Origin: Ophelia neglecta
Lineage: Eukaryota
Assembly: GCA_965285935.1 (NCBI GenBank)
Contig: OZ260667.1
Location: 19,592,001 to 19,656,000 of the forward strand
Direction of reading: 5' to 3'
Length of the DNA stretch: 64,000 nt
Made by a program: the position numbers and the translations under genes. Positions 1 to 55,989 of this stretch are shown one piece after another (position 1 is the first letter of the stretch; each line of letters starts with the position of its first letter). A model generated the notes under the pieces. The model saw only the letters and a list, made by a program, of their open reading frames with translations. It made no database searches and was not told where the DNA came from.

Positions 1-180
1 ACCCGTATGTAATGTAAGCAGAGAGGTGGAGGTAAACAAACCCAATGGCTTACCCAAAGTTTCCCACCAATATTAATTGTTAAATAATTGTGGTTTTCAC
101 CAGTTTCATTGCATTGAAATCTTATATATCTTAAACCTCTTTTTTGCAAACTATCCTTATGAACCTTTGATCAAAGCTTT

Positions 181-361
181 TAGTGTAAATCAAGGGATTT
201 TCGTGTGCACTTATTTTATTTTTTTTCTATTTTCGAAATAATCAAGTACGCTGTTATCATTTATTCCGCTACTCGAAAATCGCGTTATAACATGCTCCAA
301 AATTTAAATTGCGGCTATTTCGCTAACATGATGTCCCGCGAGAAGCTTATGTTTTATAGGA
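181..361. mobile_element. Possible degenerate short MITE-like element
   Basis: The ends resemble a decayed inverted pair (TAGTGTAAAT..ATTTTCGTG.. / ..CGCGAGAAGC..TTTTATAGG), with internal TTTTCG/CGAAAA motifs. Confidence 0.25.
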
Positions 362-1780
362 CGTGTGTACGTGCACGAGGATATGCCGTGCGAAAACCGA
401 AGGAATAATTTTGGTCTTAAGCGGATAATCTAGATACACAATGGTTATGTGTACATGGGCCCACATGCGGAATACCCCATATAAATATATTTATATAATG
501 ATTAGCATATGAACTATCTTATCATTATATCATTATAATCATACCTCTTGGCCATCGATAATAATGCAACTTGCTACTTTGAATTGAACATTCTTCTTTT
601 GGTATTTACATAATATATATATAGGCCTATATGTTGACATTATTAACTTCCTTCACTTGGGAAACCAGTTGATGTTCCAATCTTTCGGACTTGGCAAGCA
701 TTAATAATCTTGACAGCTGTTAAACAACTAAATTGGAGTTATCGACCAGTGTCGTTTTACTATCGTTATGAATACAATAACGTGGTTAAGTTTCTGGGTA
801 TTTTGGCTATGATACTTACTTATATTTTTTGGGTGGGTGGCATGGTACCCGCTGGAGGGCTAGGGGGCGATAGGGAGTTGGGGTTTCGGGTTTTGGTTTT
901 ATGTTTTCGATCATCACAGGGGAAATGCATCAAGAAAGAAAAATGGCACTCCCTTCCTGCTTCCTGCTCATACGTGCCAGGAACTAAAATCCTCGTCTCA
1001 ACCAAACTGGTGGTCAAGCTCTTCGTTGTCAATAGGCTTTCCCCTATCGCATGAATTGTCTCCTCCTTCTCAAGAGCGTTCACCTTGAAACAGTGAACCT
1101 TGAAGGTGGTGATCTGAAGGAAGCATTCTGTTAACAGAAAGCGCAGTAAGACAGTCTACCTTCAAGGAATATCAGGTTTTTTTCCGAGGAAGTTCAGCCT
1201 AAGGAATGCATTGTATAAAGGAAGCTTGCCCTATAGTAATAGTGATTTGAGGCAAGCCCACGTGTATACTACATGTACTTAATATATTATTTTTATGTAG
1301 TCGAATTATCTTATCGCTGGCATGTGGTTTAAACGTAAATCTAAAAGTGGACAATTTTAAAAGTGTCGCCTGCCATGGATGGGGTTATGGGAAAACTGGA
1401 GGGGTGGATTTGGAGTAGGTGGTGTGGTGTGGAGTTGGGGTGGGGCTGTGCCAGGGATTTGCCAGGGGTAAAAACATATCCTCTCCCCGAGTTACAAAAA
1501 ATCTGCCTCCGTCTCCCTGTAACACAACGTACCTGTTTCCAAACAAACTGTACATTTAATGAACATTTCCAATATTTTGTTTTTGTTTAAAAACCGAATA
1601 ACAAACAAGCAGCAGTTTTACAAATTTGCACTGGGCAAATGTGTATTAATATTCCTTTACCATTTAGAGTCTTTATTTATCATGTATAATATTCAGAACC
1701 CGAGAGTGCATATCGGTTTTATATTAGCATATATTAAAATTAAAGAACTACAGAGTAATAAGGGTGTAAACGATTTAAAT

Positions 1781-2012
1781 GTCCCCTGTCTGAATGGTCC
1801 CCCATTTCAAACCACAAAAAAACGAAACCTCGGTGACGCGATAAACCAGTGCATGGCGTCCAGGGGAGGTAAAACACCGAATTTCAAGACCGGATCTCTG
1901 ATATTCTAGGATTTTTTGACCCCCCAACCTAAATATTAGTATCCCCAAACCGTGTGCCGTTGGTTTAGGTTGGGGTAGTTAAATATATTGTGGGGCCATT
2001 AAGTCAGGAGAC
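1781..2012. mobile_element. MITE-like element with ~22-bp imperfect terminal inverted repeats
   Basis: Left end GTCCCCTGTCTGAATGGTCCCC; reverse complement of right end GTCTCCTGACTTAATGGCCCCA. Internal perfect 12-bp inverted pair CCCCAACCTAAA / TTTAGGTTGGGG. Confidence 0.5.
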
Positions 2013-3277
2013 TCCCCAAACTACAGCGGTGCTAATAGTTATAGGCAGAAAACAACTTTATGTGGGCATATTTCTAATATGCAAAGGACACATACCGTTC
2101 AGCTCTACCTAATATCAATATTTGAAAATTAAAAAACATATTAGATTCTTATAAATATAAAGTAATAAAGGCTTTTTCATCCACCATATACCTGTTCAAT
2201 ACAAAATCTGGCAAGTAACGTTTTAAATTGTTTTGTGTGTTTTTCTTTGGTTCCGAATTTCCCGACAACTTGAATACCAAATTGTTGAAATCGTGTAGGT
2301 CTATGTATCCATTTCAATGCCATTCCTTAACCAGCTCTTCGCTATAAAGACAGTTCCCAAAACAGCATATTCCTACCAAAATTAGTTCTAACCTACTGAA
2401 CGATCTTTTTTTTCATGCTTATCTAAAAAAAAAACAAACATTGTTGTTCCAACACAAACATGTATCTAATTACAACAATTAACAGTGAAATTGGGCCCAG
2501 CTGATCGCCCGATCAATTCACTTAATACGAAAAAAATTCTGATAATTTTAAGCCATATATTGATATTGGTAACAAATGACTCAATAAATATTAGCACTGT
2601 TTTTTTGCATGAGACTATATAATTGAGTTGGTCACAAGGGAAAAAATACGGACTGTTTCATCTCAAGTGATATGAGGTTGGGAGGGGGGGGGGAGGTGTG
2701 AGGGGTGGGGTTTGAATGAAAATTATGTTTCTGAATTGCGAAACCGTGAATTTTAGTTTTCCATTAAACTTGTATCATAAGCATTGCGAAACAAAGAATC
2801 TAAGTAAACATGGGCTTGGATTCGTACATACTACTACACGATTTCTCTAACTTTTTAAACATTCCCGATGACGAAACCTGGCCTAAAGTGTAACAAAGAG
2901 GAAAGGGATATTCGTACAGTGCCCGATGTTAACGTTTCTCTTAGCCATGGTCATATTGACATATATTATAATAGAGCGGCACGTGATAGAAGTACAATGA
3001 CAACAGCCATAATCAATTGCGAAATTGAATTCCGCAGCAATTGGAATTTTCCATAATCGTTTCCTTGATTATGCCATACTTCTGTTTACATCAGGATAAT
3101 GATGGGTCGGAGCACACGACTCACGGAAACTAAGAGCCGTTTATAAACCGAAGCGAATGGACTACTTCGAATAGTTATTTCGAAAGTTTCAGAGCATCAC
3201 CTAGTTATAAATGGAACTGTCTCTTAAGTCATAGGACATTTTCCTCTGTATGTTGCTAACCATAGGATAGATAGAGA

Positions 3278-4216
3278 ATGTACTGCACAACAAACGTTTG
3301 CCTGGCGAGCACCCACATTGTTTCATTAATAATATCCCTGGTGAGTATTGGACTATCAATGTGGACAATTTTAACGCTGAAAGGATATGAGTGGAGGTCA
3401 TCTCACATTTCTTGTAGGCCTTGCAAAGCTCCAAACGAGGATATAAACTGTTGCTCCAGGACTAACTTTGACATCATCGCACAAGGGGTAGGCACTTAGA
3501 TTACATGTGTTTCATATAAATATCAACTTATTGCAATAACTAAATTAGCATAGAAACGCCGTTTCCTCTACCTATATGTATTCGAATGCATTTCTAAATT
3601 ACGTTTTACTTTTAATTTTTTTAGTTAAACGTTCATTTCTGCGTAGCCTTCAAAGAAAATTCTTTAAGATTGTTACTTTTTATTTTAGCGACAGTTCTCG
3701 GAAGCTGGTGCATGGGAGCATGATAGTACAGTGGCTGCTCACGTAGGACTGTCTCTCGACAACTGCAGAGTCACCATGCGCTCCAGAGACATAGATGACT
3801 TAAATACACTTGAAAGAATCCGACGTGATAAAGCGAACAAATATTTAATTGTGCCAAAAGCCGGTCTTTATTTTCTGTACAGTCACGCGACAATTTTAGA
3901 TTTTCATGATGATAAGCATGGTACTCTTCGTCATTCCGGGCATCGTCAAAGGAAAAACAAAAAGTGGGATGTACAATTATACATAATGAGATACAACAGC
4001 CTGTTGCCGAATGGAGGAGGGGAAATCTTGCTGCGCAGTTCGTCTGTGCTTCCATCCACAATAAACAGTACGCATTCCGAGAGCAGTAACTTTGTGGGTG
4101 GAGTAATTAAACTTTTCAAGGATGATCATGTTTTCTTTAACATGTCAGGAATCCAACCATCTATGAAGTTTAGTGAATCGTCCAAATCAGCCTACTTTGG
4201 CCTATTCAAAGTATAA
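3278..4216 (+). CDS. TNF superfamily ligand, copy 1 (type II membrane protein, ~245 aa, 2 coding exons)
   Basis: Exons 3278-3487 (TM IVSLIISLVSIGLSMWTIL, Cys stalk CRPC...CC, donor GTAGGC) and 3689-4216 (acceptor TATTTTAG, phase 0, in frame). THD motifs: VAAHV, LIVPKAGLYFLYSH, FVGGVIKLFKDDHVF, AYFGLFKV*. AATAAA at 4371. Confidence 0.9.
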
Positions 4217-5928
4217 TACTTGAAAAATGTTGCAACTATTCTTATACAAACTGAGGCAGAATAGGGAACTGAAAAAAATGTCTTTCATGTTGTTAAGTTT
4301 TTTCTACTTTATTTCATTTCATAATTGGTGTATTAAGATTGTATAAAGAATGTACTGTTTGTTCAAGTTTAATAAAGAGTTATTTGTAAGCTTCGTTTTG
4401 TCCTTCAAGAAGCCTTAAGCTAGAAATGGTCCTATTTGATGAGGAATAACATGGATATGTTGTTATACTATTCTTCATTTCATTGTTTTGATTAAATATT
4501 TGCTTTGTCTGCCAGGTGTCTACTCCCATGTTTATAAGGGGAAATAAGAAAAAGAGCTGTATAAGGCAAAACTAAATTACATGCTTGCCTCCACTAATCC
4601 ATACGACTGAATTTCCTTATATTTTTCAACTCGCTTTTATTTAATCATATTGTGACGAGCATGGACACTACTATGACCTATTTTGAATCCGACGATAATA
4701 GTTACAAAATAACACAGTAATGTCACTATTTTACAAGTGCAACTGCAACGTAAATAAAACCCACTGAATGCAGCTAGTAGGCTACTGTAATGAAGAATGA
4801 TCATTGTTTTTTGTTTGGCCTGGTTTGCAGGCTGTTTGCACATAGGCCAGTGACTCATATAACAACATATCATAGACTCTTTGCTAGTACATTGTTGGTT
4901 TTATTGATCAATTGAATTAACATGAAATTCGGCTTTTACTGTAAGAAATAAATTAATAAGAGCAGAACTCGGACCAACTGCCTTGATTCCTTAAGGGCCA
5001 TCGGTATAGAACCAAACGTATTGTTTTGGTTTATTTTGTTTTAAGATAATTGATGTATTGCCTCAATTTGACTTTTTGTGCCTAGGCCTGTTATACATAT
5101 GTTTCCAAAATTACAAACGGGAATAAAAACCAGGATATTTGTTCTATTGGATCAAAATCATAATATAGGTAGACGCAAAATAAATGTGTGGCCACATTAA
5201 TGAATACAAATAAACCTACTTCTTCTTAGTTCTTACGAGTAGTTTTTATAACGACGGATATTCTGTCCTGTATTTAGGGAGAGCTAACACGATCGTAAAT
5301 CAGAAAGAGAGCAGCGCCTTGTTGCATAATTATGTTTGACTGAAAGCATCTATACTACTAAATCCCTATTGCATTTTAATCAAATAGGTGTGACTCTATT
5401 GTCTCCGTTGGATTGACAAAGTTTGAAATATTCTGCAGTGCTCAGGACGTACAAGAAGTGGGATCCTTCAGATTGACACCCAAGCATGGTATGTGTAGGA
5501 CTCAGACAGGAACGCTCCATGTAGCTAGATATTCTTTTTTATCTTGAATATGATGGATAAGAAATCGATAGTAAAACTGATTTTTAGGTTTAACATACAT
5601 ATGTTGAAAAACTGGGTAACTTATAATAGTAGTACATTATTGCTACATTACTTGCTGCCATCAACTTTGATTTGCGCGTAGCGACATTTCCTCTTCTACG
5701 AAGGGAAGACTATTTTGTGATTTTAGGCTGTTTTTTGTAATGTAACAAAGTGTTGTTTTGATTAAAATTATGCTGTTCGTCGTTTTCAAAACGGTTTAAT
5801 CTAACTTTTCTTTGATATTTATTTTGGCGATCTGAAAATGTACATAATCGGCTTGTTAATGTGTTCTGGGCACATATTGGAAATACTGTTGATAATACTA
5901 CTTCCGAAACTATATAGCTAACTATATT

Positions 5929-6020
5929 TGGATTTCCCATACGGGGGTTTCTGTTTCAGGGAATCGAAAATCAAATCTTTCGGTTTTCTGACTTCTTTGT
6001 TTTAGCCCAGTATAATAAGG
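5929..6020 (+). promoter_or_regulatory. Candidate NF-kB/IRF-type immune-responsive promoter or enhancer upstream of TNF copy 2
   Basis: TGGATTTCCC (reverse complement GGGAAATCCA) at 5929, GGGGGTTTCT at 5943, ISRE-like TTTCTGTTTC at 5948 and TTTCGGTTTT at 5978, TATAATAA at 6011. Motif match only. Confidence 0.4.
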
Positions 6021-7738
6021 GATGATGTCACAAACTCTGGCAACCTCCTCCAGTCAGCGGATTTGTTCATGTGTGAATTTGTATGTACGACATCACCATG
6101 AATGCCACGCCCAATCAAATTATAAAATTGAACATAACTGTGTCTGGATTAATCACATCAAAATAACCTTTTATCAGAAGTTTGAGTATCCATTATATAT
6201 ATCTGTTCGGTTGTATGCTCCATTAATGAATCAAAACCGGCGACTAAAAATGGCCACTAATATTTTTTCAATTGTTGGACATATAGATAGTTATTGGTCT
6301 TTATTTCCCGTTTCAGGCACTACCCGCAGTGTACAATTAGAAAACGATTACGTCTTAGATTGTAGTAATAAAAGTGGAAATTTCTCATAATGGACTAACA
6401 TAACTTAATATAATACACGGTTTGAAATACGATAGGACGCTTTTAGCTATCCATGAATCAGGAAAGTAGGCCAATGATCATTGACAATTTCACTTAATTG
6501 ACGGCTGATGTTGAGAGTTAACATATCAAACAACAAATGATTTTCAGATTGTCGTTGATTTGCTTGTTGTATAGAAGCAACTGGCAGAATAAGCTATAAT
6601 ATAAAACAGAAGTGATTCATTTCCCAATTTATACAATCTAGTAGGAATAGCAGTACTAAGTAAAAGCCTCAACTAATGCTTAGATATAGCATGAGAAATG
6701 AATGTCTCATGCTATTCAATTATTAGATAGTGTTGTATTGTGATATTGTGACACTGAGGTAATTAGTTATCTAAAGATAGTGCTGATTCAGTGTGGTGAC
6801 TAGTATAACATGCTACTTTAGGATATCATTACAGCTTCCCTTGTACTTTCCCGGATAACAATACGAAACCTACGGTATTTTTGAAATACATGCATATTGT
6901 ATGCTGGACCCTTTCCAACTACGCTCTTTATAGGCCAACGGCAGGTGCTGATAAAGAAGCGAAAATACACCACAATCAATACATTATGTGGATATAAACT
7001 ATGTATAGATCAATCTGTGACATCAAATTCCAACAATCAGTCTCTGTCAAGATGTTTGGTTAGTATGAAACCAGCCACCTTGTGAATCATGATAATACAT
7101 TTGATCGCAAACCATTAAATGATCAAAATCAAACATGGACAAATACACATTCCTTACAATGAGTTGTTCATGATTTTAGTCGAAGTACAAAAGAAAGCAA
7201 GCCTGTGGTCAAATTAGCATGATAGACCTTTCTGAGTCAGAAGGTCTTTTTTAGTCAGTATAATATGTGTAATCTCTATACTCGAGATGAGGGTAAATCA
7301 GTATTTTGTTTGGATACCAAATAACCCTTTTTTGTCATGTGATCTATATTTAAACAGGCGACAAAATGTGCACAATGAGTCAGTCCTCACTGAGATGGTG
7401 TTTGGTGAAACACCATGCTTGTAAATATATGTATATCGGCAAACTGGCTCAACAAGAGATTTGATTTTCGGAATCCCCTATGAACGAACGTCTACATTTC
7501 GGAATAAAGCAAAATTTGGTCTTAGGTGTTGACGATGTTATCGTGGTTATTCACATGTGTGCACCACAGTGGTTTAACCATATAATATACGTCATACGTT
7601 GTGCTTCCCAAGCTGCATTGCACGCTCAGTTGTTTAGCATTCGTAGGGCTTACATGTACATGTAGTAGGAATCTTACATCCATGTTTGAGTACCTTAAAT
7701 CTCTCATTTTAAAAACCAGACAGTATACCGCACCTCAG

Positions 7739-9536
7739 ATGGCTGCAAGGAAGTCATTACTGGGCAGTAGAGACGCCAAGGGTTCTACGGCTTCAGACCA
7801 ATCTGACCACGATAACACGAGCAGACATGTAGTATGGAGTACGAGAACCGTTACCCTATTGACAGTGTCGCTTGGCGTGGTCTTCGCGGTTTCTACGGTC
7901 AGTTTATCGTTGTCTGTATTTAATTGTTTTCGAGGATCCTCATTAGGCCTGTATGATTACTGTGTGCCATTGGATGTTGTAACTCTTGGGCCACCTGGAT
8001 TTGAAAATCTCGCTGACAAACTTCCGAAAATAACGACGAAAACTGGCCAGGTACAATGTTGTGCCCAAGATCAACAACAACTTAACACGCTGCACCAATT
8101 GGTAAGTTTAAAGTATCTTTACCCGAAAAATTCCTTTCATTCAATAAGATACGTGAGTGTGACCTACTGAATATTGCCTGAAATTTCTTTTCAAAACATA
8201 AAAAAGTATAAGTTTGTCAATGTTAGCTATTTGTTAATAGTACCAAAACATCACCATTACTCGATGCACCTATACGAGTACTTTCACTTTACACTTTGCT
8301 TTATTTACTTGACCTCAGAACGGATTTGTCATACCAGTTTTAAGGTGCAGATTATCCAGTTATCAAATATCAAAGTTCGCTCTCCGTCTGAATTTCCGCT
8401 TGAAAACATTATGTCGTATTGTGTATCGATGTCTGTCTCTGATCGGGCAAACACTCGGTCAAAACCAAGATACAATAAATCGTGTTTGTATTTTCAGTTA
8501 GTGGAAGCTGCTATTCTTCGGCAAAAGTCAAAACGTAAGGTTCATAACTCAATATATTGCGGTGTTTGATAAGGCAAATTACGACAGAATAGGCCCAATC
8601 AATTTCAGAACAAGCTTAGTTTAATAAGTTACATTTTAACGTTATCGTAGTGTTTATTTAAACCTAGTCCCTACTACTTGGCACAGCACCACTTCATCAT
8701 TTTGAAACATCGTATTTTTATATATTCCGAAATGATTGGTAATTATTAGTTAATAAAGCAAGGCACATTTAAAGTATTCCTTGTATCGTTACTATTATTT
8801 TTAGTATGATATCCCGTTATTTTATACAGATGGCTGCGTTATTGGCGGGAATATGACAGACTCGCCAGGAAACTGTACAGACTGGCAGACTGCAAACAGA
8901 ACAACTGCTGCCCATGTCGTTTTAAACAAAACTTCCGGTAATGTTTTAAATGCAGTAGCAGGTATAAGAATAAGAAATCTCGGCCTGTATTGATTTATCA
9001 ATAAAGCTTAACTTCAATCAATAGTCTTTGCAATAAGAAAAAGGTGCACATAATCAACGATCATCTATATTGGTTATTCGGTTATCGATTCAGGGCCAAC
9101 ACCCCCAAAGCACCTAATCTCGCCAATCGTTGGATGGAGCAGCAGATATCCCGGCTTTCAAGAAAATGTTGGATTAAAAGACAATCGACTGGTAATTCAA
9201 GCTGCTGGACTGTATTATATATACAGCCAGGCGACAGCTGTCGAATACCGTGACGTCAGGTCCTCTCCGGGGGCGCAAGGGCGAGACTCCAATTCCGGTT
9301 TTGTTCACTATATCAATCGTTGGAACATCATCTACCCCACAGAGGAAACACTGTTTAAGCACAGCGAGTCGAAATCCACGGATGAAACAAGATCATTTAT
9401 GGAGTATGTGAGTTATGTAGGAGGGGTGGTCTCCCTGCGAGCCGGGGATGAGCTCTATGTCATGGTGTCTGATGGTCATTTGATACAGTCAGAACAAGTC
9501 TCAACTTTCTTCGGACTTTATCGTCTGCCGAAATGA
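7739..9536 (+). CDS. TNF superfamily ligand, copy 2 (~316 aa, 4 coding exons; THD exon absent from the ORF track)
   Basis: Exons 7739-8101 (TM VTLLTVSLGVVFAVSTVSLSLSV, stalk C..CC, donor GTAAGT), 8498-8534 (LVEAAILRQKSK), 8830-8937 (..TTAAHVVL..) and 9094-9536 (IVGWSS..LVIQAAGLYYIYSQ..HYINRWNIIYP..YVGGVVSLRAGDELYV..TFFGLYRLPK*). Intron phases 0/1/1 are all consistent. An alternative in-frame ATG lies at 7682. Confidence 0.9.
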
Positions 9537-10307
9537 TAACGATACCAAGGATGCCAGATCTACACATTAAGAAACATTCAACTTTAATTTCACACAGAAA
9601 AACCCACACATATATAATATATATATTAACTCGAAAACTTTTGCCTGGTGTTGTCAATTTGAAAAATCTTAGAAATTTATATATAACCCAATTCTGTTAT
9701 TTCCTTGTTCAGCAAACTGGTTTTACACAAGACTGCATTTAAGCAAAGAATAGATAGATTATTATTAAATAAGACGAACTATCTGTGTTTTATGTCAAAT
9801 CGATAAAAATGAGAAGTACGTGCCAGGCCAATTATGTTTTTTCCTTCCTAGTTGTCACATTAACTGTTTTTAAACTAATATTTATTGATCGATTTGTTTG
9901 GATGAAAGAAACCTGAAAAGGACTTGTCGAATCCATTTTTATAGTTTCAACATGGTTGGTTGGATTATTTTAGTATTTTCCAAACCGGGAAGTGAGTTTC
10001 GGATTCCAGAAAACATCTTTAGTCAACCATGATGACAAATGATCATCGAGTTTGAAGGGCTGTTTTAAAAAATGCATTAACCTGGAGTAGATTCTTTTGA
10101 CATCGGGGATCAATATGTATATTTGAGCTGGACCCAGTGGAGTTATAAACAACCTTTTCTCTCCAGGCACTTGGGTGACAAGATTTTTGACAAGACGAGT
10201 TTTATTTTATGTTGGAGCAATGCCAAATATAGTTTGAACAATTAAATAAAGAGGACTTCCTAGTTTAATTCATACGGTGATGGGTCGTCTGAGGAAAGAC
10301 CACCATA

Positions 10308-11334
10308 ATGATACAGGCCAAAGGCTGTCCGTATGAAGACAGAAAGACGAAGACAATCTACTTCACTTTGATATTATTGTCGCTCTCTGTATCTTCTTTA
10401 AGTCTGATTCTATCTATTCGAACCTTTCTGCACCAGACTGAGGATAATCCAGCAAAAGGAAAACATAGTTTTGTAAGCTGAATAATTTTTGAATATATCA
10501 TTGCCTTGTTGACAATTATATAGTTCTCTCTCATTTGAATCATAATGATGCAACATAATTGTCTGATATTATCAGTATAGTGATGTGGTTTTAAATTCAA
10601 TTTCAAAGCTTGACCCTCAAACAGCAAACGATGATACGAAAGGCAGTACTTATGCAGGTGAGCATTTGTTTACAAAGACACAAAAGGAATTAATTTATGG
10701 GCGATCTATATAAATAAATATATTGCATATAATGCGACAATGTAATCACTTCCGTCAATCTATTGTCAATTACCATAGAATCATTTTATCCTGTATATGA
10801 TTGGTAGACGACCGTGCAAGACAAGATGGCACGCCATGGTCTGGTAAGGCTCGTCCAGCAGCTCATTTTTCCCTACGGGCCTTGAGGGCTGAGAGCAACC
10901 AGGGCAGCCGACAGTCGACCAGAAACTTACTCGATATTCAAGGCGCCGATTTTGGGGTGTCCGCGGAAGCAGACCTCCACCTAAACAAAAAGGCTATAGA
11001 AATAAAACAGCCTGGTCGCTATTTTGTGTATTGCCAGGTCAGTTTCCTTCAATATCACAGCCAACGGTCCCCTGGCCTTGATAAAAAGCAGTCCTTTGCA
11101 CATTATGTGTACAGATATAATCCCATGGGACTGTACCCTAATGATGGAACAGAGTTATTGCTAAGGGGCGCCATAAGAGACAGTGCAATAGGCAAGTCAT
11201 ATGGCGAGCATACCAGCTTTACTGGAACACTTATTTATTTGCACCGGAAAGATGAACTATTTGTGAATGTCTCTGACATCACTTCCGTAAGTCATCAGCA
11301 GGGTGGTTCATACGTTGGACTATTTAAAATATGA
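10308..11334 (+). CDS. TNF superfamily ligand, copy 3 (~246 aa, 3 coding exons)
   Basis: Exons 10308-10472 (MIQAKGCPYEDRKTKTIYFTLILLSLSVSSLSLILSIRT.., TM, not in the ORF track, donor GTAAGC), 10609-10657 (LDPQTANDDTKGSTYA, donor GTGAGC; this acceptor is less certain) and 10808-11334 (PAAHF..IKQPGRYFVYCQVSF..HYVYRYNP..LHRKDELFVNVS..SYVGLFKI*). Confidence 0.88.
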
Positions 11335-13199
11335 ATGAAAGCTCAAAATAACCCAGTGAAACAATAATGAATACAAGAATTTATATAAACGAGTGTGGTA
11401 AACAAGAATGTGAATTTGAACGAAATTTTTTTAAGTACAATTTTTTCAGCAAAGTGCTGAAAGAAGCACTTTTGTGTCTCACTTTAAGGAATTTGTTTAT
11501 GTTATGCTACATGAAACTTATTAAAAATAGCTAATACCTAGGATAGATTATATAATTTATTTATAAGATATATAATTACATAAAACAACAAAAACAAGCT
11601 AACTCAAATTATTGAATAATTTCATTGGTGCTTTCAGATTCATGACATTTAGAAATGATCTAGATATTTGTTAATGCAAATGTTAGGCTAATAACAGTGA
11701 ATTGAATAAAGCGCTGGGAAATAGTGAACCGTGAACAGTTATTTTGTGCTTAGATCTATACTTGCTACATGGTTTGCCATTCAACGGACTTCACGTAGAA
11801 AACCGGCAACGGAGAAAAATGGATTTCAACCAGATCATCGGAGAATCCGCTGTTTGTCAATTAGCGGTTTTTTGCGGAGATAAATATCATTCCATTTGAA
11901 AGCAAGCTTAATGGCGAAAGAGCGAATGAATAGGATCTAGCAGTGACATTTAAGAAATGTTGTTATTATTACTCAGCCTTTTTTGTTACTCAGATCGCCT
12001 GACACACCTTCATTCATGCATAAAACTCCCTGAATAAAGTCAGATAAAGTGTGCTATTGCGTCATTATTATCTTTATGGTATTCTCCAACTATAAGTGTT
12101 CAACAGATATGGGGCCAACTGCATAAATATTGTTAAATGCAATCTTACCAAAAAGAGTGGATTTCATGTATGCCATTTATGGATCTCATAGATATCATAG
12201 ACAACCAAATGTTAAAAAGGCGTCAAAGATTAATAAAGCACACTAACGTTATTGAGAGACCGAAACAAAACTTAAATAATTTAGATAAAATGGTATTTTT
12301 CTGAATTAACCTCCTGTGTTCATTCAAAGGGAATTATTGTTAAATTCTCCACTTAAATCGTGTGAAAAAAAATATCTGAAAGCTTTTGAATTAATATATT
12401 TGTATAACGAAGTGCAGTTTTAAAAGGATCAATCTGGGAACAGCCCATGGTTCCGGTCTTCATAGGCAATGGCTTTAAATGAATAATTGTGTACAGTTTG
12501 TATCGTCGACCATCTAGACCCACTAAGAACCAGATAATACATGTTCAAGTGTAACGTGTACGTTATGCAGCATGCTATCTGGTGCAAGTGCGCACGCATC
12601 TCCTTTTAAAGCTGTAGTTGGCAGCTGACGATCTCTTATAACGTAAAATGGACATGTTTAAATGGAAAACCTGTCATTAATGGAATATTATAACTGCTGA
12701 TAAACCCATAATACATTCTATAAAAAGGGTCGACCTATACCATACAGGTTCAGCTATCCTGTATATACGGGCACTATAAATATCCCCCAAAGTGGGGAAT
12801 TTTATCCAATGACATTTGGTTATTCAAAATAAGAAACAATTGTGAAATTTAATAAGCTTAAGTTAGGGTTCATAATGGAAATATTGACCAATCCATGCAT
12901 CATGTGATATCATATAACCTTAAATACATAGCACACGCCATCTATTGCTAGGCGTCAAAATACACTGCAGTCGGGGCAACTATTTATCAAATTCATCTAA
13001 ACGAACAGTTTTCCATTTTCTCATAACGATATCACTTTTGTGGGAACATAACGAACTAATATATAAGGGTAAGGAGCACAGATTCTAAAATTGTATTATA
13101 AAATGCTTAGGGTACAAAATACTTCATTCTCTATCTACATGTATGTTAGGGCAGTGCTCAAGATATATGGTTTAAGGAGCACGTCTGACAAACAACTGT

Positions 13200-13223
13200 G
13201 GGGTTTTCCCACTTTTCCGGAAA
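13200..13223 (+). promoter_or_regulatory. Candidate kB site plus STAT-like site upstream of TNF copy 4
   Basis: GGGGTTTTCC(C) at 13200-13210 fits GGGRNYYYCC and is followed by TTTCCGGAAA, about 400 bp before the ATG. Confidence 0.4.
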
Positions 13224-13612
13224 TCAAAAACACAAGTTAAGATATAGATTCAAGAGCTTTTCGAAAAACTGTCTGGTACAAAATCCGTATTCAAATTATT
13301 TGAACGACTTTTAGAAAAGGAAAAACATTAGAAATGGTGTAAATAACCCTGAGTTATTTTTTTCTTGAGCATAATATCAAGGGTACGTGTTTAATATTCA
13401 TCACCGGTTATGTGGGTAACAGATACATGCGAAATTACACTATAAGTTAGTTGCAACGGTGTATTCTTGGTCATATCTAACTTTAAAGTGTGCCTTCCTC
13501 TCGACGGCGGCCTATTGAAGTAAACATTGTGTCTGAATGCCTTAATGTTAAAAGCCAACACACGATCATATGGAGATAAACGTTTGATGGTGTGCCGCTA
13601 GAGACGAGTAGC

Positions 13613-15177
13613 ATGTCACCAACAAGTTCTCGCTCTGTGATCATACTCGTGATATTAGCTTTCGTGGTGTCGCTGGTTTCACTTCTCTTGGCGTCGTACA
13701 ACTTCTATCAGCACATATTTAGCCATAATGGAACACGGGAATTTATGGATGCTGCGACATGTACGTTTTCTTTCTGTCTGTTTTGTTATTCTGTTTTCTC
13801 GTATACTTTGAACTACGTATATTGCAAACAATAAAGACTGTAACAGAGCTGATTTCATGACTATTGGTGTGATTAAGACTGCAGTCTATGACATTCTTCT
13901 TTAAGGTAAAATCACAGATCTCAAAGACTTGAATATAAAATATGGCCAAAAGTATAAGATGAGTGTGATATCTATTTATTTGCTATTTTTCAACTTCAAA
14001 TAAGCTTTGTAAAAGACAAATATATGTTCTTATTTGCGAACCATTTGGCAGATATAAGTGCAGCTAGCAGCTTACTTCGCTGCTCCCGAGCAGAGTACAT
14101 GCGATGATGCAATTTAATTGGGTCAGAACAAGGGTGTGCACCTCAATATGGTCCATATGAGGATTTCTATGAGATGATCGGAAGGCAGCAAGCAAGAAGT
14201 TTATATGCTAATCTGTTTTAGTGAGGTTATTTTGAAAGAGGCATCTGAACAGATATTCAACAGAACACATAAGTCCCGTAAATACACGACATCCGTATGG
14301 TTACTCGACCAGTCTTTAGGATTTATAAAGCCGAATCCAAATAATGGCTAAACCGGTAGTTTTCTTTAAATGTAACTCAAAGATAATCTGTATGTGCCAT
14401 TAGGTCACCCATTGCAGGCCTAAACTATGAAGTAGATATATTTGCAATCAATGTCAAGCTGCATGAAAAAAGCCAAACGCTGCATCGAAGTAGTTTCTCG
14501 AATTATCATATAAATTGTGAGCTATAGATTATATGAAGAGAAGAATCGATAAATGGTTTGGCACCATGGTATTATTATTATTATTTGGTTTTTATTTTTA
14601 TTTTTTTTTATATTGTTTGTAAATGCTTTCAGATATTGGGTCTAACAGTTATCCGAAAGGGGGCAATCTTTCCAGACTGGCAGCCGCACATCAACCACTA
14701 AGAGCCACAAATCTGCCTGGCAGCCACAGACCTGGTCCAACATCGACACGTCCATTTCCCGTGGAGAACGTTTTACAATTTTACGATGACCTAAGAGGGG
14801 TGTCAATCGAGCAAAATACAAACATTAATTCGTACAGTATGGTCATCAAGAATCCTGGTTTGTATTTCGTCTACAGCCAAGCCAGTTTTATTATGTACAA
14901 TGACGTTGGTACTTTCCATCATGAACAGTCACGTTTTGCCGTCTACATTTACAGATACAACAAAATATACCCCGGAGTAGGGACAGAGTTGTTGTTTAGC
15001 AGTTCTAATACACCAACAAGAAACAATAAAACCGCATTCGAAGAGCATACCTGTTTTGTGGCAGGATTAGTTCGAGTCCTCTTAAACGATGAACTATTTG
15101 TTAAAGTTTCGAACGACAAAGATATTAGTAGAACACCTGGATCGACATATTTTGGATTGTTTCAGACTGGAGTGTAA
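13613..15177 (+). CDS. TNF superfamily ligand, copy 4 (~230 aa, at least 2 coding exons)
   Basis: Exon 13613-13760 (TM VIILVILAFVVSLVSLLLASY, donor GTACGT, phase 1) joins in frame to 14633-15177 (acceptor CTTTCAG after a long T tract; AAAH..IKNPGLYFVYSQASF..YIYRYNKIYP..FVAGLVRVLLNDELFVKVS..TYFGLFQ). A small middle exon cannot be excluded. Confidence 0.88.
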
Positions 15178-17425
15178 ATTCTAGATTTGAAAAATCACTC
15201 TCACAGAAACATGCTACCAATTTAAAATTGTTTTAAAAAACAATTAAGGGAAATACTTTCAAGGACATACTGGTAGAAAGCGTTGCATTAACCTATAGGG
15301 TGCCCGAATCTAACTAAACAAAATAATCAAGGGTTAACCGGAACAATCTGATCATCCGATTGACTGCTTTGGCGTTTTATATGAAATTGATTAATCAATC
15401 AATTGCAGCATTGTGCTATAGTGATCAATCGCAATTGAGCACATAAAATAGGAGTGAAACCGCGGAGCCTACCCAAATAGCTAAATAAAGTGACTAAAGG
15501 GCTCTCCAGGGGAGCAGGCAGTCAGGGTTCCCTCCATTTTCCAAACTGTGATATTCCATTACTAACTGTTTTATCCTCTTCGTTGATGTCTAGCTATGAC
15601 ACCAACTCAGTTTATCATTGCCTGCTATTTGCTTAACCTTGCATCCATGCGCATGCCTCTTATTTGCTAGTATTGGTTTGTTCATGGCAACCCGTATTGG
15701 GGTATTTAAACAATTAACACTTATAAGAACTTAATTAACTCAACAACAATCAGTATTCTGAAAATCATTTGTGTTCAATACTGGAATAAATATCGATGTC
15801 ATATCACATTCATTTGTGTTATTACTATAATGTCATGAGGATTATCCTGCAAAAATTTACATAGTATAGTCTAAGCACAGTTCAAAAATGATTATAGAAG
15901 GTACTTCCTATGAACGTTGATTGTAGTTTATAACAAAAAGGACGGGGTCATTTTAACGTTGGATTTCCTTAAAAAGTAGGCCTATCACTTAATAAATAGT
16001 AACTGCCCAGTATCGCAATATGGAATATACAGATGCACTGCTATGTTCACAACCATCAGCCTACCACATCTAAGAAGTTTAAACAATTCAATTGTTTCCT
16101 ATTATGGTGGAAACGATTCCCACTGAATTATTGTGTATTTTTTGTAGCATAAAATGCTGTTGCTTCTGCTACCAAACATTCACATCGTTTGTTGCACCTA
16201 AACAGAGTCACCAAATCATATTATTTACTTACGAGGATATTTAAAGACAATCTAGGGCAAAGTATAAAACTTGTCAACAGTCAAATCTACAGCAGGAAAG
16301 GGTTTAAAGTACTAAATAAGTTGCAGATATTTTTTATCCGTTATTGGGAACACCTTATCTTCAAAACAGGCAAAATGTGAGGATGAGGCCCAGTTATATT
16401 TTATTTGTCATTTGGGAATTTGCACTGAGGTTTAAGTTACTTGTTCTACGCCATTACTTATAATGTTTAATGCTCACATTATCACACCATGCCGCAGGCG
16501 AATATGAACCCTCCAGCATCACTTGTTATCTTACATTGTCGGCATTTTTCGCACAACTTGTTGATATATGTAGATCTTCTTACTTGAAACTATGCCTAAG
16601 TCGAGATAAATACCATAAGGTTTATGTGTTTGGCGTTACGTTTACAACTATGTCACCTAATTCTGCAAATATTAAAAGTGTTATTGTCAAAGCCTGGAGT
16701 GGATAACCGGTAGACAAAGTAAAAGCATTAATTAATAATATTCCACTCAATCGGTTCGAAAAGTTATTTTGAAGGAAAAACTATAACAACTTATATATAT
16801 TAAGCATACTTTTGAAGCGGACAAATATTTTGAGCTACATGATTATACATTCGCAAAATTGCATTTGTCAAACGTAAACCTAGCTATTATGGTCCCGAAA
16901 TAGAATCCCCCAGCATTCCACAGGTTTAAACATTGAGAAATACCCCCCCCCCCTCCCCTTCACATAACGTTTATACCGGAAAATAACCAAGAAATATAAG
17001 AAGTAGAGACTCGGAACTGATATAAGTTGCGGGTGCAAAATAGTTCATTCCCCAGTATCTAAGTGGTCTGTGTCTAAGAGAAGGGCAGTGGCTCAAGTAT
17101 CATTCAATACAAACTACTGAAGAGTGGACTTGTCCGGAAATGAAGAATATACGAGTTAAGAAATCGTTGCAAGAAGTTTTCGAAAAACTACATTTTTCTT
17201 GGGAAGATCTAAACGTAATAACCTCTTTGCAATTCGTTTGCATAAAACCAAGTAGTTGACACGATCAATAACGTGAGAAAATGAAACAAATTGGAAATTT
17301 CGAAAACAACTCTAGATAATTCGTTTATTTTTGCTCAAGACATGAGCTGCTAATGATAAAACAGCCATCAGGGCAACACAAAATCATATGAAGATAAACA
17401 TGATTAGCCGCGTGATATTATATTA

Positions 17426-23732: not shown

Positions 23733-26939
<3,207 letters not shown>

Positions 26940-26960
26940 GCTGCTAATTTAGTTAGACAT

Positions 26961-34894: not shown

Positions 34895-55989
<21,095 letters not shown>

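Follow-up and report, generated by a model that had tools for sequence, protein, structure and literature searches.

A stretch of 64,000 nucleotides of the genome of the annelid Ophelia neglecta (assembly GCA_965285935.1, contig OZ260667.1, forward-strand positions 19,592,001 to 19,656,000; C12:19592001-19656000, hereafter the window) carries part of a tandem array of TNF-family ligand genes. The array has eight members, named A to H in order, with E to H in the window and A to D upstream of it. By sequence similarity all eight are TRAIL-like, and they form two old sub-lineages. The array probably encodes membrane-anchored homotrimeric TRAIL-like cytokines, the paralogs being divided by receptor or by timing.

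The extent of the array was determined by a genome-wide search for the TNF family, which returned at least 10 matches among 15 candidates. Eight of these 10 lie on C12 between 19,569,606 and 19,607,177 and make up one array of 37.6 kb, in the order A B C D E F G H, an uninterrupted row in which every gene has the same orientation and an open frame. The remaining two are gene I, unlinked on C8, and an intron-split ligand gene on C2. Genes A to D and gene I, all five, have open frames and score above the Pfam PF00229 cut-off of 23 bits. No TNF remnants beyond A-H were found in 144 kb around the array. An earlier note, made from the window alone, had described an array of four TNF genes; the four plus-strand genes are present, but the array has eight, the other four lying upstream of the window. 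A search with a Lottia query for a closer, separate orthologue of the molluscan TNFSF10-like gene elsewhere in the genome found none and led to the same nine loci among 11 candidates, although intron-split domains could escape it. A search for longer relatives with the last exon of gene F gave one match among 300 candidates, and an atlas search contributed the TNF label and nothing further. Beside gene I, about 4 kb downstream, there is a 111-nucleotide copy of its exon 3 (C8:33561657-33561767; 90% identical) with no other exon copied.

GT-AG exon models, which are predictions from the DNA, give uninterrupted proteins of 245, 316, 246 and 230 amino acids for E, F, G and H respectively. The 2, 4, 3 and 2 coding exons that the earlier note had counted are borne out by these models, and with a full TNF domain in each open protein the genes can be regarded as intact, as it had proposed. 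The TNF assignment also holds for all four against the PF00229 cut-off. Each gene of the array encodes one N-terminal hydrophobic segment (19-residue mean hydropathy 2.1-3.3), which at the level of sequence is consistent with a type II topology. All exons of the window genes are on the plus strand. In gene E, exon 1 (3278..3487) is predicted to encode a short cytoplasmic end, the membrane anchor (~3317-3373) and a cysteine-rich stalk and to end in a phase 0 donor, and exon 2 (3689..4216) encodes the whole of the TNF domain, which is the most diverged in the array and lacks the A' tryptophan (41.8 bits). Gene F begins with an exon (7739..8101) for the cytoplasmic tail, the membrane anchor (~7850-7906) and a cysteine-rich stalk, ending in phase 0. 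This is followed by a 37-nucleotide stalk micro-exon (8498..8534; phase 0 to 1) of the same size and phases as that of gene D, then by exon 3 (8830..8937), with the end of the stalk and the first TNF-domain strand and a phase 1 intron seven codons past the conserved histidine, as in D and I. Exon 4 (9094..9536) carries the remainder of the domain with the A' tryptophan kept (79.4 bits), and its best match among solved structures is TRAIL (E 2.8e-12). Gene G has a first exon (10308..10472; start and donor predicted) with the anchor at ~10362-10418, no cysteine stalk and a phase 0 end, a 49-nucleotide micro-exon (10609..10657; phase 0 to 1) whose acceptor is uncertain (an alternative at 10625 has a poor donor), and an exon (10808..11334) for the whole TNF domain, without the A' tryptophan (59.6 bits). 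Several in-frame alternatives exist for its first intron. Gene H has an anchor (~13637-13693) and a very short stalk in exon 1 (13613..13760; phase 1) and the whole TNF domain, again without the A' tryptophan, in exon 2 (14633..15177; 62.5 bits).

The region is covered by three runs of DNA-like contigs from one sample, possibly the source animal; as DNA they can confirm the assembly but nothing beyond it. A multi-copy repeat within the intron of gene H (13968..14267) is marked in them by a rise in depth and by loose ends. Within window positions 1-16500, ~1% of sites disagree between the sequenced animal and the assembly, and several short indels fall outside the coding parts given above; this represents high heterozygosity or a second individual. 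NF-kB-like sites were seen within 1.5 kb upstream of three of the eight genes; as this is close to the background rate of ~0.1 per kb it does not count as evidence. No consistent furin-like site was found.

The exon counts differ from gene to gene, and the earlier note had taken this to indicate different gene architectures. When intron positions are expressed relative to the histidine of the first strand, a common arrangement becomes apparent. Three introns occur in each of D, F and I, at -39 to -41 (phase 0), at -25 to -29 (phase 1) and at +7 (also phase 1). The first two are shared by A, B, C and G (-32 to -36, phase 0; -20 to -25, phase 1), gene H has one at -20 (phase 1) and gene E has one at -18 (phase 0). 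The micro-exons of the array measure 34-49 nucleotides, and in A, B, C, E, G and H the entire TNF domain lies in one exon. Because offsets and phases line up across the genes, the exon counts are, by parsimony, best explained if a single four-exon plan (phases 0/1/1), still seen in D, F and I, was reduced in a nested fashion; the counts therefore do differ, but not as independent designs. Gene E most likely lost the micro-exon, since its donor matches that of intron 1 and its acceptor is close to that of intron 2, and a search for a hidden micro-exon with adequate splice sites gave no option in E or in H. Nothing relevant on these intron phases, or on an annelid TNF-ligand cluster, was found in the open-access literature.

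TRAIL was the best solved sequence match for all three genes searched (F, G and C). A profile search returned 980 proteins at E<=0.001, and a tree was built from the nine genes A-I, the top 58 new proteins of the 980 and 20 chosen named or earlier rows, which after removal of three short rows comprised 84 rows (75 outside). In this tree D, F and I form a clade with two outside proteins (support 100/100), and A, B, C, E, G and H form another with four outside proteins (99/95), within which A, B, C and E are a subgroup (98/89). The two sub-lineages are interleaved along the array, D and F standing among the six others. Vertebrate-type rows form a group of their own, and the deep nodes are weak. 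A smaller first tree had placed three long-branch rows within the array group; it is superseded by the 84-row tree. The earlier note had offered a choice between a local expansion and unrelated clades, and the outcome is mixed. A clade of the eight array genes alone is rejected (approximately unbiased (AU) test, p=0.011), because outside proteins and the unlinked gene I nest among the array genes, but a wider single origin, of the nine genes and their six nested relatives, is not rejected (AU p=0.17) and may hold. As both sub-lineages have outside members, the array is not a burst restricted to this species.

The protein features follow the same division. The mid-domain signature that had been noticed in the window genes is present in its strict form in 4/4 of them, in 0/5 of the other close paralogs and in 15/167 outside homologues, and in a loose form in 9/9 genes and 68/167 outside homologues; it is therefore real but not specific to these genes and is a general TRAIL-like motif. 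Of the outside rows, 62/69 have the A' tryptophan; D, F and I share it with their two relatives, and none of the ten members of the A/B/C/E/G/H clade has it. Among the features seen here only this tryptophan-less clade is slightly unusual, and no description of such a TNF-ligand clade was found in the open-access literature. A cysteine aligning with the one that binds zinc at the TRAIL trimer axis occurs in 54/69 outside rows, in 0/15 of the inside rows and in none of the nine genes A-I, and for this reason the array genes are called TRAIL-like and not filed as TRAIL. C, D, E, F and I keep a cysteine-rich stalk, which in A, B, G and H is eroded or gone. The first loop also varies: in the models it is a turn of 2 residues for A and about 15 residues long for G, and it is longer in D; the His-to-Trp spacing in F, I and D is 21-33 residues. 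TRAIL itself contains a zinc ion, and it has a loop insertion that enters the receptor site and is critical for receptor contact (PMC6521207).

Divergence within the window is high. TNF-domain identity among E-H is 26-39%, and no nucleotide match was found among them (blastn E<=1e-5), short chance-type repeats apart. A recent nucleotide-level duplication among E-H was considered and is ruled out by blastn and by repeat comparison. The proposal of an old tandem expansion is upheld; the accompanying remark that no nucleotide-level duplication is visible applies to E-H but not to the upstream pair B/C, which shares 73-75% nucleotide identity. B/C is also the youngest pair, with a non-synonymous divergence (dN) of 0.29, a synonymous divergence (dS) of 0.88 and a dN/dS of ~0.33. 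A second allele of gene E is open, with no stop or indel, and differs by three amino-acid-changing and three silent codons.

A history that would accommodate these observations begins with the duplication of a four-exon ancestor (phases 0/1/1). One lineage, that of D, F and the unlinked I, would have retained the plan and the tryptophan, and the other, that of A, B, C, E, G and H, would have lost both the intron within the domain and the tryptophan and had its first loop and stalk remodelled. Later E would have lost the micro-exon and H a further intron or stalk. The order C-D then E-F fits the duplication of a two-gene block.

Two of the eight proteins were modelled. The models of A, which is the open frame including ~35 intron-derived residues, and of G (predicted local distance difference test (pLDDT) 71.8 and 86.1 respectively) match solved structures of TNF-family ligands, as expected for the jelly-roll TNF fold, at Foldseek E values of ~1e-11 to 1e-10. 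A homotrimer prediction for E scored 0.88 against 0.01 for the best of three controls, with a contact agreement of >=95% and a pLDDT of 79, although the predictor may simply have learned it from solved TNF trimers. In calibration the homotrimer mark was given to 21/30 solved pairs and to 0/23 single chains (17/29 in eukaryotes, 7/16 in animals and 1/7 without an older solved relative); the run for E had three copies, unlike these pairs. On the receptor side, TNF-receptor repeats gave 11 matches over the cut-off at seven loci (13 matches among 131 candidates). At C2:54134142-54146916 a plus-strand gene with TNF-receptor repeats lies tail to tail, within ~5 kb, with a minus-strand TNF ligand gene of a different type whose domain is interrupted by introns; the two are a possible linked ligand-receptor pair. 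The array proteins would act as anchored homotrimers signalling via different members of the host set of TNF receptors, in immune or cell-death signalling, with the paralogs split by receptor, tissue or timing. The suggestion of a diversified cytokine locus is supported.

Several points weigh against this interpretation. The trimer prediction covers one gene of the eight, E. The dN/dS ratio is measurable for B/C only, dS being at or close to saturation in the remaining pairs (7/8 of those tried), and the second allele of E cannot show constraint because 3 + 3 codon differences are too few. Part of the pattern of intron 'loss' could be misprediction of the exon models. Finally, joining the two sub-lineages costs 21.6 log-likelihood units and the best tree leaves them apart. 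This last result also raises the possibility that the array combines two ancient TNF types of separate descent, which either came together later or persisted as a tandem that predates the annelids, and is not one lineage-specific expansion; ancient two-gene TNF tandems have been proposed for chordates (PMC12843592). We regard this history as doubtful, though it deserves to be kept in view, as one origin is not rejected by the AU test, the zinc-position cysteine is absent from both sub-lineages and no named mollusc or chordate falls in either of them among the 75 outside rows. It concerns history and is compatible with the function proposed above. A different concern is birth-and-death turnover, in which D, F and I would carry the function and several derived copies, most of all E, would be redundant or in decay. 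The long branches of E and H, the lowest Pfam score (that of E) and the stray exon duplicate beside gene I, a sign of local turnover, could be read in this way, and rapid gain and loss has been reported for tunicates (PMC12843592). There is little chance that this is correct, given eight open frames despite saturated silent sites, the dN/dS of B/C, the persistence of G/H-type proteins in four outside records and a second allele of E free of stops and indels.

Some neighbours may instead heterotrimerise, the tryptophan-less genes partnering adjacent TRAIL-like genes (C-D, E-F) or each other (G-H). Aromatic residues at positions of the trimer core are common to all nine genes in the alignment, so that mixing is possible, and the two lineages alternate as C-D and E-F; block duplication, however, accounts for this order without interaction. 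Lymphotoxin alpha/beta and APRIL/BAFF form heterotrimers, and clustered vertebrate paralogs do so in vivo (PMC7674686), but all eight array proteins carry a predicted anchor of their own, unlike secreted lymphotoxin alpha (PMC7674686). As E is predicted to trimerise alone, neighbours are only 26-40% identical and gene I sits away from the array, heterotrimers seem unlikely, and nothing in these results requires them. A more elaborate version, a combinatorial cytokine system in which tryptophan-less ligands with single-exon domains co-duplicate and mix-trimerise with their TRAIL-like neighbours, would if true create many receptor-binding surfaces from eight genes; we consider it highly improbable. 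Anchored homotrimers divided by receptor or timing remain the preferred reading.

Other genes were observed around the array. A SelO-like adenylyltransferase gene lies on the minus strand at window positions 23733-26948 in two long exons (frames of 330 and 181 codons), its closest relative being 62% identical. That relative (P0002) and a G/H-type relative (P0253) are each on a 66,602-base contig, a hint that the TNF-SelO neighbourhood may be conserved. In a tree of 28 rows the SelO protein falls into a group of 10 (support 98/99) from which the named molluscs, brachiopod, echinoderm and chordates are absent, and the cluster of one group member contains a Lamellibrachia satsuma record, which on this one gene makes an annelid host likely. 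Further along the minus strand are a T-box gene (~34895-48250; 47777-48250 holds the start of its domain and 34895-35350 is probably its last exon), which presumably resembles Tbx1, and a retrotransposon of the long interspersed nuclear element (LINE) type (49568-52628) with its reverse transcriptase split over several frames. Upstream of the array, a minus-strand exon of a pyridine nucleotide-disulphide oxidoreductase (C12:19533732-19534076) has a weak Pfam match and is, we assume, similar to AIFM2/FSP1.

The best named relatives of the array genes are molluscan 'TNFSF10-like' proteins (Haliotis rubra, Lottia gigantea, Ylistrum balloti and Dreissena polymorpha; profile E 1e-36 to 1e-29). These share the mid-domain motif and the cysteine-rich stalk, which is present in 32/70 full-length outside proteins as in C, D, E, F and I. 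They are ~33-42% identical to the array proteins, keep both the tryptophan and the zinc-aligned cysteine and form their own clade. In human TRAIL, exon 3 is 43 nucleotides long and frame-shifting (PMC2377072) and the receptor-binding part is split over exons 4 and 5, its last two (PMC3469471). The array genes resemble this in their short frame-shifting stalk exon (34-49 nucleotides) and, in D, F and I, in the division of the domain over the last two exons. They differ in lacking the zinc-position cysteine, in having one stalk exon fewer and, in six of the eight, in the missing tryptophan. If the last intron of vertebrate TRAIL lies just after the first strand and in phase 1, the resemblance of the 0/1/1 plan to TRAIL suggests that the design dates to early bilaterians. 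The parallel drawn in the earlier note with the vertebrate TNF/LTA/LTB cluster holds for the arrangement of neighbouring TNF-family genes but not beyond it, because the nearest solved relatives of the array genes are TRAIL; the array also differs in subfamily by similarity and in having all members anchored, and an independent origin is likely.

Expansions of TNF ligands are known from several invertebrate groups. Counts of 23 ligands in the oyster and of at least 24 in amphioxus are cited by PMC12843592 and PMC7674686; tunicates have up to 14 through tandem duplication (PMC12843592) and Capitella teleta has eight paralogs (bioRxiv 10.1101/2024.07.27.603686). Oyster TNFs occur in clusters of three or in pairs, and paralogs differ in their timing after challenge (PMC4346834). 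The array is like these expansions in its local tandem duplication, with the difference from the oyster that 8/10 of the detected ligands are lined up in the same orientation in a single row, which makes a bigger cluster than the oyster ones described there. As one locus holds almost all of the ligands and the receptor loci number about seven, the pairing of ligands with receptors in this annelid becomes a bounded problem. The array is also a small, clean example of how such a locus diversifies, with introns lost in a nested series, stalks shortened and the first loop reshaped. An eight-gene tandem TNF array is a type of expansion already published for oyster, tunicates and amphioxus, and the current understanding stands; to these independent expansions of TNF ligands the array adds an annelid case.

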